DNA from: Promethearchaeota archaeon
GTDB taxonomy: Archaea > Asgardarchaeota > Thorarchaeia > Thorarchaeales > Thorarchaeaceae
DNA: 12,957 bases
Reading direction: 5' to 3'
NCBI GenBank assembly: GCA_027031765.1
Contig: JALVPN010000118.1
Coordinates: forward strand, 1 to 12,957
In this document: positions 4,289 to 12,957 of the stretch, one piece after another
Layout: every line of letters starts with the position of its first letter
Numbering within the stretch: position 1 is the first letter of the stretch
Translations under genes and position numbers: made by a program
Notes under the pieces: model-generated
Told to the model about the DNA's origin: nothing
The model's database searches: none
What the model saw: only the letters and a program-made list of their open reading frames with translations

Positions 4289-7231
4289 CTACGCGCGCAG
4301 TACGGAGGAGACCTTGTACGAGCCCACAGAACCACAGTATGGGCACTCGAGGTCGAACGTCTTACCGTCTGGACTGAGGCCCTTGACGAATGCGTGTGTT
4401 TCGGGGAACGCCTCCCTCTTCTGGGCACGCTCCTTCAGTTCCCTCACGGAGAGCATGTCGAGTCGCACATCGTCGAGGGTGACACGACGGATGTGGATGC
4501 CGCACTGTGCACACTCGAGGGCCTCGCGGTCGGTGATGCTCTTGAGCTCTGAGGAGAGCAGACTGGCAAACTCCTCGATGTCCTCTTTGAGGGCCCGCTG
4601 TGGGTGGTACCCCTTGACCGATACTTGGGCACCGGTCACACGGATTCGGCCAGACACCTCGATTACCCCACGCTTCTGACCGCTCGCAGGGTATACGATG
4701 GCTTGGTACCCGAACGACCGGACACTCCCCATCTTCTGCTTCTGGAGCTCCACCGGCACGTACTGGCCAATGCCAAAGATCTCAATCATCGACTGGCGGA
4801 CCGTCATTAGCAGCATGTCCACCATCTCGTCCAGGGCGCTCTCGTCCAGTCTCGAAGCGATTATGGCAGGCTTGGTGCGGATGGGTGTACTATTGGTCAC
4901 AATACTGCGTGACACCTCGCGGGCGGGTCTCCCGTCTATGTAACGGACTACACGGGCGGTGCCGTCGTGGCGGCCCCGGATGTGGCTGGGGGTCTCAAAG
5001 ACCTTCACATAGTCGACATATGACAGCTCATAGTCGACGGTCACGCTACCACCAAGGAGCGGGTACACGACCAGTGAGGTCTGGTACTCACTGTCAGCAC
5101 CGGCACCGCCGGGCAGCCGCTCGACATAGACCTCCTTGTCCGGGTCCTCACCCTCCTGTTCGAAGGACGCTGCCTGTCCGACCAGAGTCAGGACGAGGCG
5201 GACGTTAGACGCAGCCTCCGGACTCTCGTTCTTGAGGATTACCTTCAGTGTTGCGGTGCCGTCACTGTTCTCGACATCCTCTATGCGCACGCCCACATGC
5301 ACGTTGCCATAGGTACTGTGTACTGGTCCCGCACCAAGCCTCGTGACACTAGGCCGGGGTGGTTGAGTGGTAGGCCCAAGTGCCGGACTCTCGGACGTCC
5401 CTGTCCCAGCGTCCACTACCGGCTCTCCGACATCGAAAGGAGCCGTTTCAGCTAGGAGGGTTTCGAGTGTACGCAGCTTTGAGTGTACCTCTTCGAGTGT
5501 GGAGCTGACCGCGGCCGGCACATCGGGGAACCCTTTGGGGAGGATGTCGCTGACCGACTCAAAGAAGTCTGCTGTGGCCCTGCCCACCTTGTCAATCTGG
5601 AGGTACTGGGTCTTCGCACGTCGATACTGCCTCCATTCGTTGTTCAGCTGGGCCTGCCCGTCCAAGTACTTTGCATGGTCTACAAAGAGCCTGTACCGCT
5701 GTTCGAGCAGGCCGTCCAGTGTTTCGCTCACCTCTGCCCTCGCACTCTCGCTCTCGGAAGGAGCAAACCGCGACTTTGTTTCCAAGTACTCAAGCATTCT
5801 GTCGCAGGCACGGATGGCAGCCTCCAACACCCCTGTCTGCGTCTTGTACCTCTTATCCATATCAGCAAGTTTTCCGGCCGTTTCGAGCTCCGCCTTGTAT
5901 TGAGCAATCTCCTCGTGGAAAGCATTGAAGCGCGCGAGGAACGCATTCTGAGCAGCCTTGACCTTCATGTCCCTTGCTTCTGTCAGCACCTCGCTGGAAG
6001 GCGGCATCGCCTCGACCTGTTCCCACAGGCTATAGGCCTCGACCCAGAGCTGCTCGGCCTTTGCACCACTCTCCTGTCCCGCCTGTCTTGTGATGCTCTT
6101 TGCGGCCTCGTATACTGAGTCACGGGACTGCTGCAGACGGAGCAGCTCTATTGACTCAGCGCCGCTCTCCCGCTCAACATGTGCATATATGTCGGTGAAG
6201 TCAGCGTCCGGGTCTGTGACCGGGATGAGACGCCTGACGAGGAACTGTGTGGGGTTCTGTAGGGCCATGAATGTGGGCTTCGTGTCCCCACTGGGGTCGA
6301 GGAGGTACAGTCCAATCCAGCCGTTCCCAAAGCCCAAGAGGAGGCCAATGCCCTTGGAGTTCGGCACCTCGACAAATGCTGCAGAGTACACGCCATATGG
6401 CGCGGTATCGAAGAGGTCAAACTCCGTGGTGCTAGTCCGCCCACCAGACGAGTACAGGGTTACGCCATGACCGGTGATGTCAACGGCGGTCACAACGTAT
6501 GCGCCGGCCTCCCAGGCCTTGGCGGCCACCGCATATACGGGGTTTGTAAATGCGAGCTCAGTAGCCCCCATCTGAATCGAGGCCTCTCTCAGCGTCTTGA
6601 CCCTGACCGTGTTGTCCCAGCACGCGGCTGCAAGGACACCAGAGCGGTCTTCAGGACACACATCAAGGGCAACTGCAAAGACCATATCTTGGCTCTCCCG
6701 GCTCTGGAACATGTACTGCCTGCGGAAGAAGACCTCGTGCAGCCGCTCCCCCCGCCGCGTGCTCTTGAACCACATGACAACACCGTGCTTGTTAACACCC
6801 ACAATCTCTGGGACGCCATCACCGTCAACGTCGCCGGCTAACAGCTGGATGAAGCTATTCTGGGTAGAACAGTCGCCCGCTGTACTGAGTTGCACAAGGA
6901 CGTACCTGCCTGCCTGACGGGAGAGCCTATAGAGGTCAAGCCAGTTGGACGGCCCCATCGTCACTGCCACTTCCAGCTGTCCACAGTCGTCAAAGTCGCC
7001 AAATGCAAGGGCAGTAACAGGAGCCGGCATCTCCAGACTTGCCACGACCTCCGGCCTGTCACCTACGTGACTCCAGATCTCCAGTCGGTCGTTCTTGTCC
7101 TCGCGTGCAACAGCCACCATGCGTTCACGCGTATCGGGTTCCACCGCAACATCGAAGGCCAGGACACGGAGTGGTGTCCTGACCACCACTTGTCCAATAC
7201 TGAACAGCCCTGATGATGTCGTATGACTCAT
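4289..7231 (-). CDS. Multidomain protein, 980 aa: FG-GAP/VCBS-type beta-propeller, helical bundle, Pro-rich linker, Ig-like sandwich, alpha/beta domain, Zn ribbon
   Basis: Propeller blades with AFGDFDDCGQLEVAV, LAGDVDGDGVPEIVG, AAACWDNTVRV and LLLGFGNGWIGLY (aa 1-367). Helices at aa 368-596. Sandwich with TLKVILKNESPEAASNVRLVL (aa 641-790). CAQC and CPYC at aa 907-966. Strong RBS and ATGA overlap with the upstream gene. Confidence 0.9.
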   Translation of the reverse strand: MSHTTSSGLFSIGQVVVRTPLRVLAFDVAVEPDTRERMVAVAREDKNDRLEIWSHVGDRPEVVASLEMPAPVTALAFGDFDDCGQLEVAVTMGPSNWLDLYRLSRQAGRYVLVQLSTAGDCSTQNSFIQLLAGDVDGDGVPEIVGVNKHGVVMWFKSTRRGERLHEVFFRRQYMFQSRESQDMVFAVALDVCPEDRSGVLAAACWDNTVRVKTLREASIQMGATELAFTNPVYAVAAKAWEAGAYVVTAVDITGHGVTLYSSGGRTSTTEFDLFDTAPYGVYSAAFVEVPNSKGIGLLLGFGNGWIGLYLLDPSGDTKPTFMALQNPTQFLVRRLIPVTDPDADFTDIYAHVERESGAESIELLRLQQSRDSVYEAAKSITRQAGQESGAKAEQLWVEAYSLWEQVEAMPPSSEVLTEARDMKVKAAQNAFLARFNAFHEEIAQYKAELETAGKLADMDKRYKTQTGVLEAAIRACDRMLEYLETKSRFAPSESESARAEVSETLDGLLEQRYRLFVDHAKYLDGQAQLNNEWRQYRRAKTQYLQIDKVGRATADFFESVSDILPKGFPDVPAAVSSTLEEVHSKLRTLETLLAETAPFDVGEPVVDAGTGTSESPALGPTTQPPRPSVTRLGAGPVHSTYGNVHVGVRIEDVENSDGTATLKVILKNESPEAASNVRLVLTLVGQAASFEQEGEDPDKEVYVERLPGGAGADSEYQTSLVVYPLLGGSVTVDYELSYVDYVKVFETPSHIRGRHDGTARVVRYIDGRPAREVSRSIVTNSTPIRTKPAIIASRLDESALDEMVDMLLMTVRQSMIEIFGIGQYVPVELQKQKMGSVRSFGYQAIVYPASGQKRGVIEVSGRIRVTGAQVSVKGYHPQRALKEDIEEFASLLSSELKSITDREALECAQCGIHIRRVTLDDVRLDMLSVRELKERAQKREAFPETHAFVKGLSPDGKTFDLECPYCGSVGSYKVSSVLRA

Positions 7232-12915: not shown

Positions 12916-12957
12916 TCAGTCCTCCTTTCTGCCCTTTCCGTTGTCCTCGTCGTCCTC
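12916..12957 (-). CDS. 3' end of an upstream gene truncated by the window edge (...EDDEDNGKGRKED*)
   Basis: 14 open codons from the window edge to a TGA 7 nt before the GTPase ATG. Charged tail composition. Carries the GTPase RBS. Confidence 0.5.
   Translation of the reverse strand, partial: EDDEDNGKGRKED

Follow-up and report, generated by a model that had tools for sequence, protein, structure and literature searches.

An Asgard archaeal locus with paired DO-GTPases, a GAP1-N2 protein and a propeller/appendage-like partner, a probable divergent variant of the GTPase-centric conflict systems

Predicted GTPase-centric conflict systems, in which DO-GTPases are encoded together with a GAP1 protein, an FNIII-repeat protein and variable partners, were described by Kaur, Burroughs, Iyer and Aravind (2020, eLife, PMC7159879). 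These systems are mostly bacterial, with 'a few archaea' among their hosts, and a paralogous GTPase pair occupies the same neighbourhood in 38% of them (PMC7159879). A glutamate conserved in Walker B is the defining trait of the DO-GTPases (Kaur 2020, PMC7159879). A literature search found no experimental study of GAP1-N2/DO-GTPase systems. Another group, the archaeal 'adaptin-type' systems Meth_adaptin and Halo_adaptin, resembles the endosomal ESCRT sorting machinery and has been read as protein sorting (Makarova 2024, mBio, PMC10936438). Its components are a Vps4-like ATPase, PspA/ESCRT-III-like, winged-helix (wH) and SPFH proteins, and appendage-like proteins consisting of an immunoglobulin (Ig) domain plus a TBP/platform domain, some of which have, in addition, a zinc ribbon or a propeller at the N-terminus (PMC10936438). 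Among eukaryotic adaptors, BBS2/7/9 combine a propeller, a helix, a GAE domain, a platform and a coiled coil, in that order (Singh 2020, eLife, PMC7018513). In the present work we describe a locus on contig JALVPN010000118.1 of the Asgard archaeal assembly GCA_027031765.1. The whole contig, 12,957 nucleotides long, was analysed and is referred to below as the window. It encodes a DO-GTPase (P0001, or GTPase B), a giant GAP1-type protein (P0002) and a propeller/appendage-like protein (P0003). We propose that the locus probably belongs, as a divergent archaeal form, to the GTPase-centric conflict systems of GAP1-N2 type, with P0003 in the variable adaptor/sensor slot.

The window corresponds to contig C118 of the metagenome-assembled genome (MAG) G000, which measures 2.95 Mb and is 95% complete. 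The genome was assigned to the archaea by its 16S fragment, which best fits the archaeal small-subunit model, and close relatives of the locus genes are titled 'Candidatus Thorarchaeota archaeon'. The single public sequencing run carrying the sequence is a hydrothermal-vent metagenome, and no RNA run with it is listed. The genes for P0001, P0002 and P0003 follow one another on the minus strand and are joined by exact 4-base ATGA stop/start overlaps at 11883-11886 and 7228-7231. Ahead of them the minus strand opens in-frame at the window end, and this frame closes with ...EDDEDNGKGRKED-TGA at 12918-12916, a stop located 8 nt ahead of the ATG at 12908, with a Shine-Dalgarno-like AGGAGG between the two. 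The preliminary description, made from the letters of the window, had reported three ATGA-joined genes with a fourth gene ending just upstream, and the open reading frame (ORF) coordinates bore this out in every detail. Its view of the unit as a trio had to be given up. The unit was found to be larger, with two paralogous DO-GTPases, SPFH-like and wH genes upstream, and a linked module of a Vps4-like AAA ATPase and an S8 protease.

The Pfam families relevant to the system are PF19975/PF19993 (DO-GTPase) and PF20013 with PF20014 (GAP1, N2 type). P0001 matched DO-GTPase1 at 46 bits (5.5e-12) and DO-GTPase2 at 37.1 bits (3.6e-9), with a cut-off of 27, and scored 44.8 bits in the six-frame search. 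Its nucleotide-binding motifs are G1 (GTPSSGKT), the switch-I Thr, DVSGE (Walker B with Glu), TKAD (G4) and SAVG (G5); the DxxGE of P0001 agrees with the glutamate that defines the DO-GTPases, which supports the assignment. An alignment of 16 DO-GTPase paralogues, including P0001, showed conservation of GxxxxGK[TS], the switch-I Thr, D-x-x-G-E/D, [TS]KxD and S[AS]xG. GTPase A of the Thorarchaeota-type lineage has TMWD where TKxD is expected.

GTPase A is a paralogue of P0001 located at the very end of another contig of the same genome, C60 (~15866-16725, plus strand), where its frame runs off the contig. It is 25-28% identical to P0001 and 54% identical to the first GTPase of a syntenic metagenome contig, L010. 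In L010 the gene order is X (309 amino acids, aa), Y (209 aa), GTPase A, GTPase B, a GAP1-like gene (1448 aa), a P0003-like gene (937 aa) and a convergent S8 gene. Because synteny with L010 runs through X, Y and GTPase A, the fourth gene was identified as a second GTPase and C60 was placed at the right end of C118. Judged by this synteny, the cut fourth gene is the second, paralogous DO-GTPase A, the body of which would lie on C60. Two to three DO-GTPase copies were also present in L010, L011, L012, L028, L029 and L030. The preliminary description had suggested a second GTPase and a tubulin-like or vWA gene among the upstream genes; the former was found, and the latter was not found in Pfam scans.

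Both GTPases begin 8-12 residues ahead of the P-loop. GTPase B additionally carries a C-terminal extension of 45-60 aa (window 11883-12050), which ends in an acidic-hydrophobic tail (for example ...DALFGEDEI, ...DDLFD, ...DDLLPI and ...FDDLLGGL). The extension was found in all five loci of the lineage, four of them with a P0003-family gene in view and one (L013) ending before that position, and was lacking in two of the three loci where another protein follows GAP1. It might serve for docking, either to P0003 or to the longer GAP1 body.

The GAP1-N2 profile scored 23.3 bits against the whole of P0002, 26.4 bits against residues 1-480 and 27.9 bits in the six-frame search (cut-off 24). It was matched in seven of eight family members (best 1.7e-6), and GAP1-M was matched in three of eight orthologues. 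The Pfam profile scores thus bore out both assignments made in the preliminary description, that of the GTPase to the DO-GTPases and that of the giant protein to GAP1-N2/GAP1-M, with GAP1-M staying just below its cut-off. No GAP1-C family was among the Pfam matches of P0002, and past residue 260 there was no Pfam match. Beyond the GAP1 head, the protein is fast-evolving and without a recognised domain, and continues with a low-complexity linker and a basic tail; identity to the L010 orthologue was 40% over residues 1-480, 30% over residues 1-1032 and 19% in the tail. The linker (~1040-1110, nt 8557-8769) is G/A/R/Y-rich, of RG/YG type, and separates the first 1030 from the C-terminal 440 residues. 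It coincides with the gap between the two BLAST segments common to P0002 and the L010 orthologue. The GAP1 gene lies directly 3' of a DO-GTPase gene in the window, with the ATGA overlap, and in all seven related loci. Co-folding of GTPase B with P0002 residues 1-260, both supplied as alignments, gave a score of 0.16 against a mark of 0.32, which counts neither way on binding.

Word-based homologue searches with P0003, P0002 (residues 1-480) and P0001 returned only the query itself and one or two close relatives, and a search for related loci using a 5-sequence GAP1 alignment returned the known Thorarchaeota contig only. An exhaustive HMMER search was performed against 1.84 billion (1.84e9) representatives, and in this set the P0003 family consists of four full-length clusters, the remaining P0003 matches being generic FG-GAP repeats at residues 70-160. 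The other members, P0005, P0015 and P0017, are each encoded directly after two to three DO-GTPases and a 1448-1482-aa GAP1-like gene, and no P0003-family gene was found away from a GAP1 gene, either among the representatives or in the three other loci retrieved. A lack of conservation of the propeller gene beside the GTPase-GAP1 pair had been set beforehand as refuting the proposed coupling, but the gene stood beside the pair in all three of these loci. A fifth locus, L013, from a Thorarchaeota MAG, has the same start and is cut inside the GAP1 gene.

Across 400 genomes of the phylum, a full-length P0003 member was found in two (G000 and G368, a Zodletone Thorarchaeota MAG) and DO-GTPase1 matches in eight, and the system was found in approximately 1-2% of the Asgard genomes searched. 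In G073, G134 and G193, which represent three other Asgard families, GTPase A, GTPase B and a GAP1-N2-like gene are followed by an unrelated protein of 1107-1331 aa; hhalign comparison of the P0003 family with these fourth proteins revealed no relation (probability 0.5%). The position after GAP1 is thus a variable slot, as in the published model. The fourth protein of G193 (L029:4822-8814, G193:C516, minus strand; 1331 aa) ends in a phospholipase D (PLD) domain (PLDc_2, 4.6e-16), is DrmC/DpdK-like in PADLOC and may, as a candidate effector, provide this core system with a nuclease or phospholipase. A BatD/DUF11-like sandwich was observed in the middle of this protein. Identities between loci were 48-62% for the GTPases, 34-40% for P0003 and 24-30% for GAP1, and the slow evolution of the GTPases alongside the fast evolution of GAP1 and P0003 fits a system of constant switch parts and variable sensor parts.

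The linked module extends over window positions 66-3830 and G000:C15:9-1788. By tblastn, its AAA gene was located on contig C15 (9-1079, minus strand), running off the contig at its start, and is 44% identical to the AAA gene of L012. The gene order in L012 (215 aa, AAA, 214, 280, 107, S8) is the same as that of the window module. The best Protein Data Bank (PDB) matches of the AAA protein were Cdc48/VCP D2 domains (1e-85). Vps4_C was matched at 23.9 bits in the L012 orthologue (cut-off 21.3) and MIT at 23.6 bits in L030 (cut-off 30); the copy in G000 is contig-cut. The S8 protein matched Pfam Peptidase_S8 at 5.9e-55 and the PADLOC subtilase model at 2.9e-33, and its triad motifs DTG, HGTH and GTSMASP (D/H/S) are intact. 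PADLOC also gave matches to the two components of IetAS, namely IetA (1.1e-29, L012 AAA orthologue) and IetS (2.4e-16, window S8). The three helical proteins of the window match no Pfam family, and no ESCRT-III, Snf7 or PspA signal was obtained from the small helical/coiled-coil proteins when their profiles were compared with Pfam and PDB. The proposal that the small coiled-coil proteins are ESCRT-III proteins thus found no support in these profiles. Small coiled-coil paralogues flank the AAA gene and have in common a 'G-x-x-P-S/P-P ... Y-K-R' hairpin-loop motif, and the end of the 125-aa ORF (2110-2172) consists of three tandem PAGEPM/K heptad-like repeats.

At the other end of the unit, Y matched Band_7/SPFH below the cut-off (6.9e-4, 1.5e-3), and its nearest language-model clusters were SPFH at 0.91. 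X gave weak PCI and winged helix-turn-helix (wHTH) matches and has a hydrophobic N-terminal helix. Gene X as assembled on C60 includes a stretch of N, seen in its translation as four X. We infer that the full unit is formed by C15 (reversed), C118 and C60 (reversed) joined in this order. The locus as reconstructed encodes X, Y, GTPase A, GTPase B, GAP1-N2/M and P0003 on one strand, and a coiled-coil protein, the Vps4-like AAA, three helical proteins and S8 on the convergent strand. The features are listed in Table 1.

Table 1. Positions of the features of the locus. Positions are those of the window (C118) unless another contig is named; the last column gives the identity of the encoded protein to its L010 counterpart.
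Feature	Position	Strand	Basis or remark	Identity to L010
X	G000 C60 end			40%
Y	G000 C60 end			34%
GTPase A	G000 C60 end			54%
Predicted DO-GTPase A 3' end (last 13 codons + TGA; 'fourth gene')	12916..12957	-	open frame from window end	
DO-GTPase B, P0001, 341 aa	11883..12908	-	Pfam DO-GTPase1/DO-GTPase2	48%
GAP1-type giant protein, P0002, 1552 aa	7228..11886	-	GAP1-N2 residues 3-108, GAP1-M 170-235 (just below cut-off)	30%
P0003, 980 aa	4289..7231	-		34%
P0003 residues 1-340, FG-GAP-type beta-propeller with DxDxDG loop (GDVDGDG)	6212..7231	-	FG-GAP_3 matches	
P0003 residues 345-595, long helices/coiled coil	5447..6199	-	single-sequence AlphaFold2 model	
P0003 residues 637-761, Ig-like beta-sandwich, GAE/ear type	4949..5323	-	AlphaFold2 model of 631-980	
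P0003 residues 797-900, alpha-beta4-alpha 'platform' subdomain	4532..4843	-	AlphaFold2 model of 631-980	
P0003 residues 907-977, split C4 zinc ribbon (CxxC ... CPxC), inserted helices	4301..4513	-	invariant Cys	
Intracellular S8 subtilase, 552 aa, convergent with GTPase operon, last gene of AAA module	2172..3830	+	Pfam Peptidase_S8	56%
Three helical proteins of AAA module	66..2175	+	gene order as in L012	
Coiled-coil protein	66(87)-641	+	AAA module	
Helical protein, true start uncertain	791-1801	+	AAA module	
Helical protein, 125 aa, ATGA-coupled to S8 (2172-2175)	1798-2175	+	AAA module	

The reading of the locus as a divergent variant of the conflict systems is preferred because of its patchy distribution, its swappable fourth component (in one case a PLD protein), its combination of an AAA ATPase with a subtilase, IetAS-like by PADLOC, and the published logic of such systems. 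The preliminary description had offered two readings, a new variant of the conflict system and a proto-trafficking module. The former fits better, given the sporadic occurrence, the swapped fourth protein and the IetAS-like pair. For the latter, the parts list parallels that of the adaptin-type ESCRT-like systems (Makarova 2024), and no sequence homology to coat or BBSome proteins was detected. The most likely role would be an inducible response to viruses or other invaders. In a mechanism of this kind, the two paralogous GTPases would pair up as a heterodimer and, docked to the constant GAP1-N/M head, serve as a nucleotide switch, and the fast-evolving GAP1 body together with the lineage-specific fourth protein would constitute the sensing/adaptor layer. 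P0003 would contribute to this layer through its propeller, through a coiled coil that dimerises and through an appendage-like module that binds peptides. The SPFH-like protein Y and the hydrophobic helix of X may put the assembly at the membrane, and the AAA ATPase and S8 protease would provide the output, either remodelling or proteolytic activation.

Several observations weigh against this reading. The conflict role of the GAP1 systems is itself a computational prediction. The DO-GTPase1 match of P0001 spans model positions 2-94 of 271 only, and the GAP1-M match of P0002 (residues 170-235), at 21.6-23.6 bits, falls just short of the cut-off of 24. Neither GTPase has the Cys motif or hydrophobic segment that would mark an N-terminal zinc ribbon or transmembrane (TM) helix. 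As to the FNIII-repeat third component, no fn3 match was found in the genes of the window, C60 or C15. The tubulin + vWA, Hsp70 + GrpE and kinase + PP2C + vWA themes did not appear in Pfam scans of the locus and its relatives, no PADLOC model matches P0001, P0002 or P0003, and no toxic or enzymatic domain could be recognised in P0003. At 0.595, the GC content of the locus is the same as the genome mean (0.592), so that its composition gives no sign of recent transfer. The contig joins C15-C118-C60 are drawn from synteny alone; the ends of C60 and C118 showed no direct sequence overlap, and contigs from the metagenome run stop at the same point. Finally, the Vps4-like AAA, SPFH, wH and appendage-like parts equally recall the sorting systems of Makarova 2024.

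The predicted architecture of P0003 starts with an FG-GAP propeller, followed by a coiled coil; next come a GAE-like beta-sandwich and an alpha/beta platform, and a C4 zinc ribbon closes the protein. FG-GAP_3 was matched in all four members of the family (best 1.3e-6), and the sequence matches of P0003 are otherwise weak FG-GAP matches. A hydropathy scan of P0003 revealed no signal peptide and no TM segment, and the propeller is predicted to be cytoplasmic. The language-model clusters nearest to residues 1-600 were BBS2, BBS7, ITFG2 and FG-GAP propellers at 0.84-0.85, which serves as a lead only. Structure prediction of full-length P0003 from the single sequence with AlphaFold2 gave a predicted local distance difference test (pLDDT) value of 41 and was usable only in the helical middle (345-593, where pLDDT rose as high as 83). 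With a 5-sequence alignment, the model of residues 631-980 reached a pLDDT of 71.4 and a predicted template modelling score (pTM) of 0.51, and recovered the sandwich, platform and zinc ribbon. The family alignment displays DxDxDG-type loops in the propeller, then helices in the middle and a region rich in beta-strands ahead of the ribbon. Four cysteines (C907, C910, C963 and C966) are invariant across the P0003 family and in a paralogous module in G011, another genome of the same family.

The preliminary description had called the third partner a propeller/helical/sandwich/platform protein that is foreign to the described GAP1-N2 systems, and Kaur 2020 indeed lists no such protein. It had also likened this protein to coat and BBSome subunits. 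When the model was compared with PDB using Foldseek, the appendages of AP2 alpha (3.6e-6 to 1.3e-5), AP2 beta2 and gamma-COP and the GAE domains of GGA were among the top matches. These appendage alignments (E 3.6e-6 to 1e-4) covered 275-300 columns, including both subdomains in the same order, with TM-scores of only 0.2-0.34. Structural comparison by VIA-align against 48,161 chains placed the sandwich closest to the adaptin/GGA ear and the BBS9 GAE, not to FNIII, in a near tie with unrelated Ig-like sandwiches, and two-subdomain alignments (sandwich + platform) had a root-mean-square deviation (rmsd) near 10.7 A. A shape search of the ESM-Atlas with the P0003 module returned mainly CARDB/NPCBM-type archaeal sandwiches. 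At the sequence level, the P0003-family profile found no BBS or adaptin match among PDB sequences at E up to 10, and comparison of the family with Pfam revealed no BBS/adaptin relation, with Beta-prop_BBS7 at E 0.2 in one of four members. The likeness thus held for the predicted fold and domain order (AlphaFold2, Foldseek, VIA-align) and failed for sequence-level homology, where profiles found none. As far as the models go, the coat-like resemblance of P0003 is real as a predicted fold and domain order, not shown as homology. A PD-(D/E)xK nuclease at the P0003 C-terminus, proposed on a Cas4 match (E 0.12), was rejected, as no invariant acidic or Lys residue is present there.

The C-terminal module of P0003 also occurs elsewhere. 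A 1199-aa protein of G011 (G011:C15, minus strand; L006:933-4529) combines FG-GAP/PQQ and TSP3 repeats and a TM helix with a P0003-type C-terminal module, which is approximately 21-25% identical to P0003 631-980 and keeps the Cys ligands. No GTPase gene was found within the 16 kb examined at the G011 locus. The presence of the sandwich-platform-zinc-ribbon module on this unrelated membrane protein makes the architecture of P0003 look assembled from mobile modules, rather than ancient and fixed. A profile of the C-terminal module run over 86 genomes of the family found members only in G000, G368 and G011. Additionally, P0097, a database protein of 166 aa, starts with a cytidine/dCMP-deaminase-like fragment, to which the zinc-ribbon end of the P0003 module is attached (32% identical to residues 868-979); this may reflect an error of gene calling or a further fusion involving the module.

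Under an alternative reading, which we regard as unlikely, the locus would encode a machine for membrane remodelling or protein sorting that is regulated by GTPases and is related, as an Asgard form, to the adaptin-type ESCRT-like systems. In such a machine P0003 would act as cargo or adaptor subunit, Y and X would have membrane and bridging roles, and the DO-GTPase pair with GAP1 would be the recruitment switch. The small coiled-coil proteins would form ESCRT-III/PspA-like filaments that the Vps4-like AAA disassembles. The Vps4_C match above the cut-off in the L012 AAA, together with the MIT match below it in L030, the Band_7 matches and SPFH clusters of Y and the weak PCI/wHTH matches of X are all consistent with sorting. 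So are the alignment of the P0003 sandwich and platform to AP2 and COPI appendages and the BBS9 GAE, its domain order, which is that of BBS2/7/9, and a parts list that parallels the archaeal systems of Makarova 2024 (PMC10936438). However, the small helical proteins lack any ESCRT-III/Snf7/PspA signal, P0003 has no sequence-level relation to BBS proteins or adaptins, unrelated Ig-like sandwiches score almost level with its GAE match, and the platform superimposes at an rmsd above 10 A. Moreover, a distribution in approximately 1-2% of searched Asgard genomes, the replacement of P0003 elsewhere by unrelated proteins, one with a PLD nuclease domain, and the fact that neither an S8 protease nor GAP1 has been described in the published adaptin-type systems all speak against this account.

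The relationship between the two modules bears on a further alternative, more improbable than the sorting machine, in which two independent systems lie side by side in a defence-island-like region and P0003 is a lineage-specific passenger or structural protein outside the switch. The modules lie on opposite strands in the window and their relative orientation varies between loci, AAA and S8 resemble the two-gene IetAS by PADLOC models, the AAA gene of G193 has no adjacent S8 gene, and a DDE transposase is located near L013. Nevertheless, at least six loci spread over four Asgard families have the two modules next to each other. A Vps4-like AAA with S8 adjoins the GTPase module in G000, G368/L012, G073 and G134, and S8 orthologues adjoin it in L010, L012, G073 and G134; in L010 the S8 gene alone of the module is in view, and in L011 its first gene alone. 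That they stay adjacent despite rearrangement argues for a functional unit. As for P0003 being a passenger, its gene overlaps the GAP1 gene by ATGA in L011 as well as in the window, members of its family were found only after a GAP1 gene among the representatives searched, and the GTPase B extension, present in all five loci of the lineage, is missing from two of the three loci with another fourth protein.

Least probable of all is a GTPase-switched adaptor machine, in which the DO-GTPase heterodimer and GAP1 would recruit a BBS2/7/9-like P0003 to an SPFH-marked membrane, with the Vps4-like ATPase and the protease resetting or processing the assembly; if true, P0003 would share ancestry with the eukaryotic GAE-platform adaptors (BBSome, AP, COPI), and the locus would be the first prokaryotic genetic coupling of a switch GTPase, a regulator and an appendage-type adaptor.

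Several further observations were made in and around the locus. The convergent ends of the S8 and P0003 genes are separated by 458 bp (3831-4288) with no long ORF and no Rfam match, the window as a whole being without Rfam matches; in L010 the ends of the S8 and P0003-like genes are merely ~5 bp apart. Upstream of X (G000:C60:9000-14149; L039:2-5150) lie genes for a WD40 protein (cut) and, on the opposite strand, for a TPR protein of 225 aa, besides an ORF of 956 aa without a Pfam match, and the WD40 and TPR pair is found upstream in L010 as well. A smaller and different context was seen in two genomes of another Asgard family (L031/L032; G343:C29 and G344:C137), where a DO-GTPase1-type gene of 260 aa (E ~1e-11) occurs singly; the genes after it encode 247, 307, 505 and 407 aa, and a giant GAP1-like gene is missing.

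GAP1/DO-GTPase systems are known from comparative genomics only and almost entirely from bacteria. The present locus adds an Asgard lineage with a larger defined gene set (two GTPases, GAP1, SPFH-like, wH, and Vps4-like AAA with S8) and a new partner family, that of P0003, which is confined to the DO-GTPase/GAP1 context. P0003 and several of its neighbours belong to folds or families discussed as building blocks of eukaryotic trafficking, namely appendage-like proteins, FG-GAP/BBS-type propellers, SPFH and Vps4-like proteins. The locus is therefore a compact case for the question whether such Asgard parts have their place in membrane biology or found their first use in conflict systems. Should it be a defence system, as the preferred conflict-variant reading would have it, it would represent a new type in the still thin catalogue of Asgard immunity.

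Compared with the systems of Kaur 2020, the locus has the same paralogous pair of TRAFAC GTPases with a Glu after the Walker B DxxG, a GAP1 gene immediately downstream, whose product begins with N2 and a putative M domain, a combination of constant switch parts with a large, variable, non-enzymatic partner, a linked peptidase and AAA, and a sporadic distribution. It differs in its Asgard host, in the length of GAP1 (~1450-1550 aa), in GTPases without zinc ribbons or TM helices, in the P0003-type partner, in the SPFH-like and wH genes upstream and in the attached Vps4-like AAA/S8 module. With IetAS it shares an AAA ATPase and an intracellular subtilase in one module (PADLOC IetA and IetS), but these matches are weaker than the generic similarity (Cdc48 D2 1e-85, Peptidase_S8 6e-55), the Asgard module has three to five extra genes for helical proteins, and its AAA gives Vps4-type MIT/Vps4_C signals.

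In predicted domain order, P0003 agrees with BBS2, BBS7 and BBS9 over the first four domains. Calcium-binding loops have been described in the BBS2 propeller (PMC7018513), and the P0003 propeller has a DxDxDG loop of FG-GAP type. The BBS subunits have one helix where P0003 has a helical segment of ~250 aa, and end in a coiled coil where P0003 ends in a zinc ribbon; the partner GTPases of the BBSome are Arf/Arl, whereas those encoded beside P0003 are DO-GTPases. No sequence or profile similarity was found between the P0003 family and AP2, COPI or the BBSome, and the family is very rare in Asgard genomes. The adaptin-type systems, compared here by description only, resemble the locus in a Vps4-like AAA flanked by small helical proteins, a wH/PCI-type protein, SPFH, and an appendage-like propeller/zinc-ribbon protein. 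No DO-GTPase, GAP1 or S8 protease has been described in them, they are found in Methanobacteriales and Halobacteriales, and ESCRT-III/PspA similarity was not detected at the Asgard locus. The locus thus shares its switch core with the systems of Kaur 2020, and much of its periphery with those of Makarova 2024.

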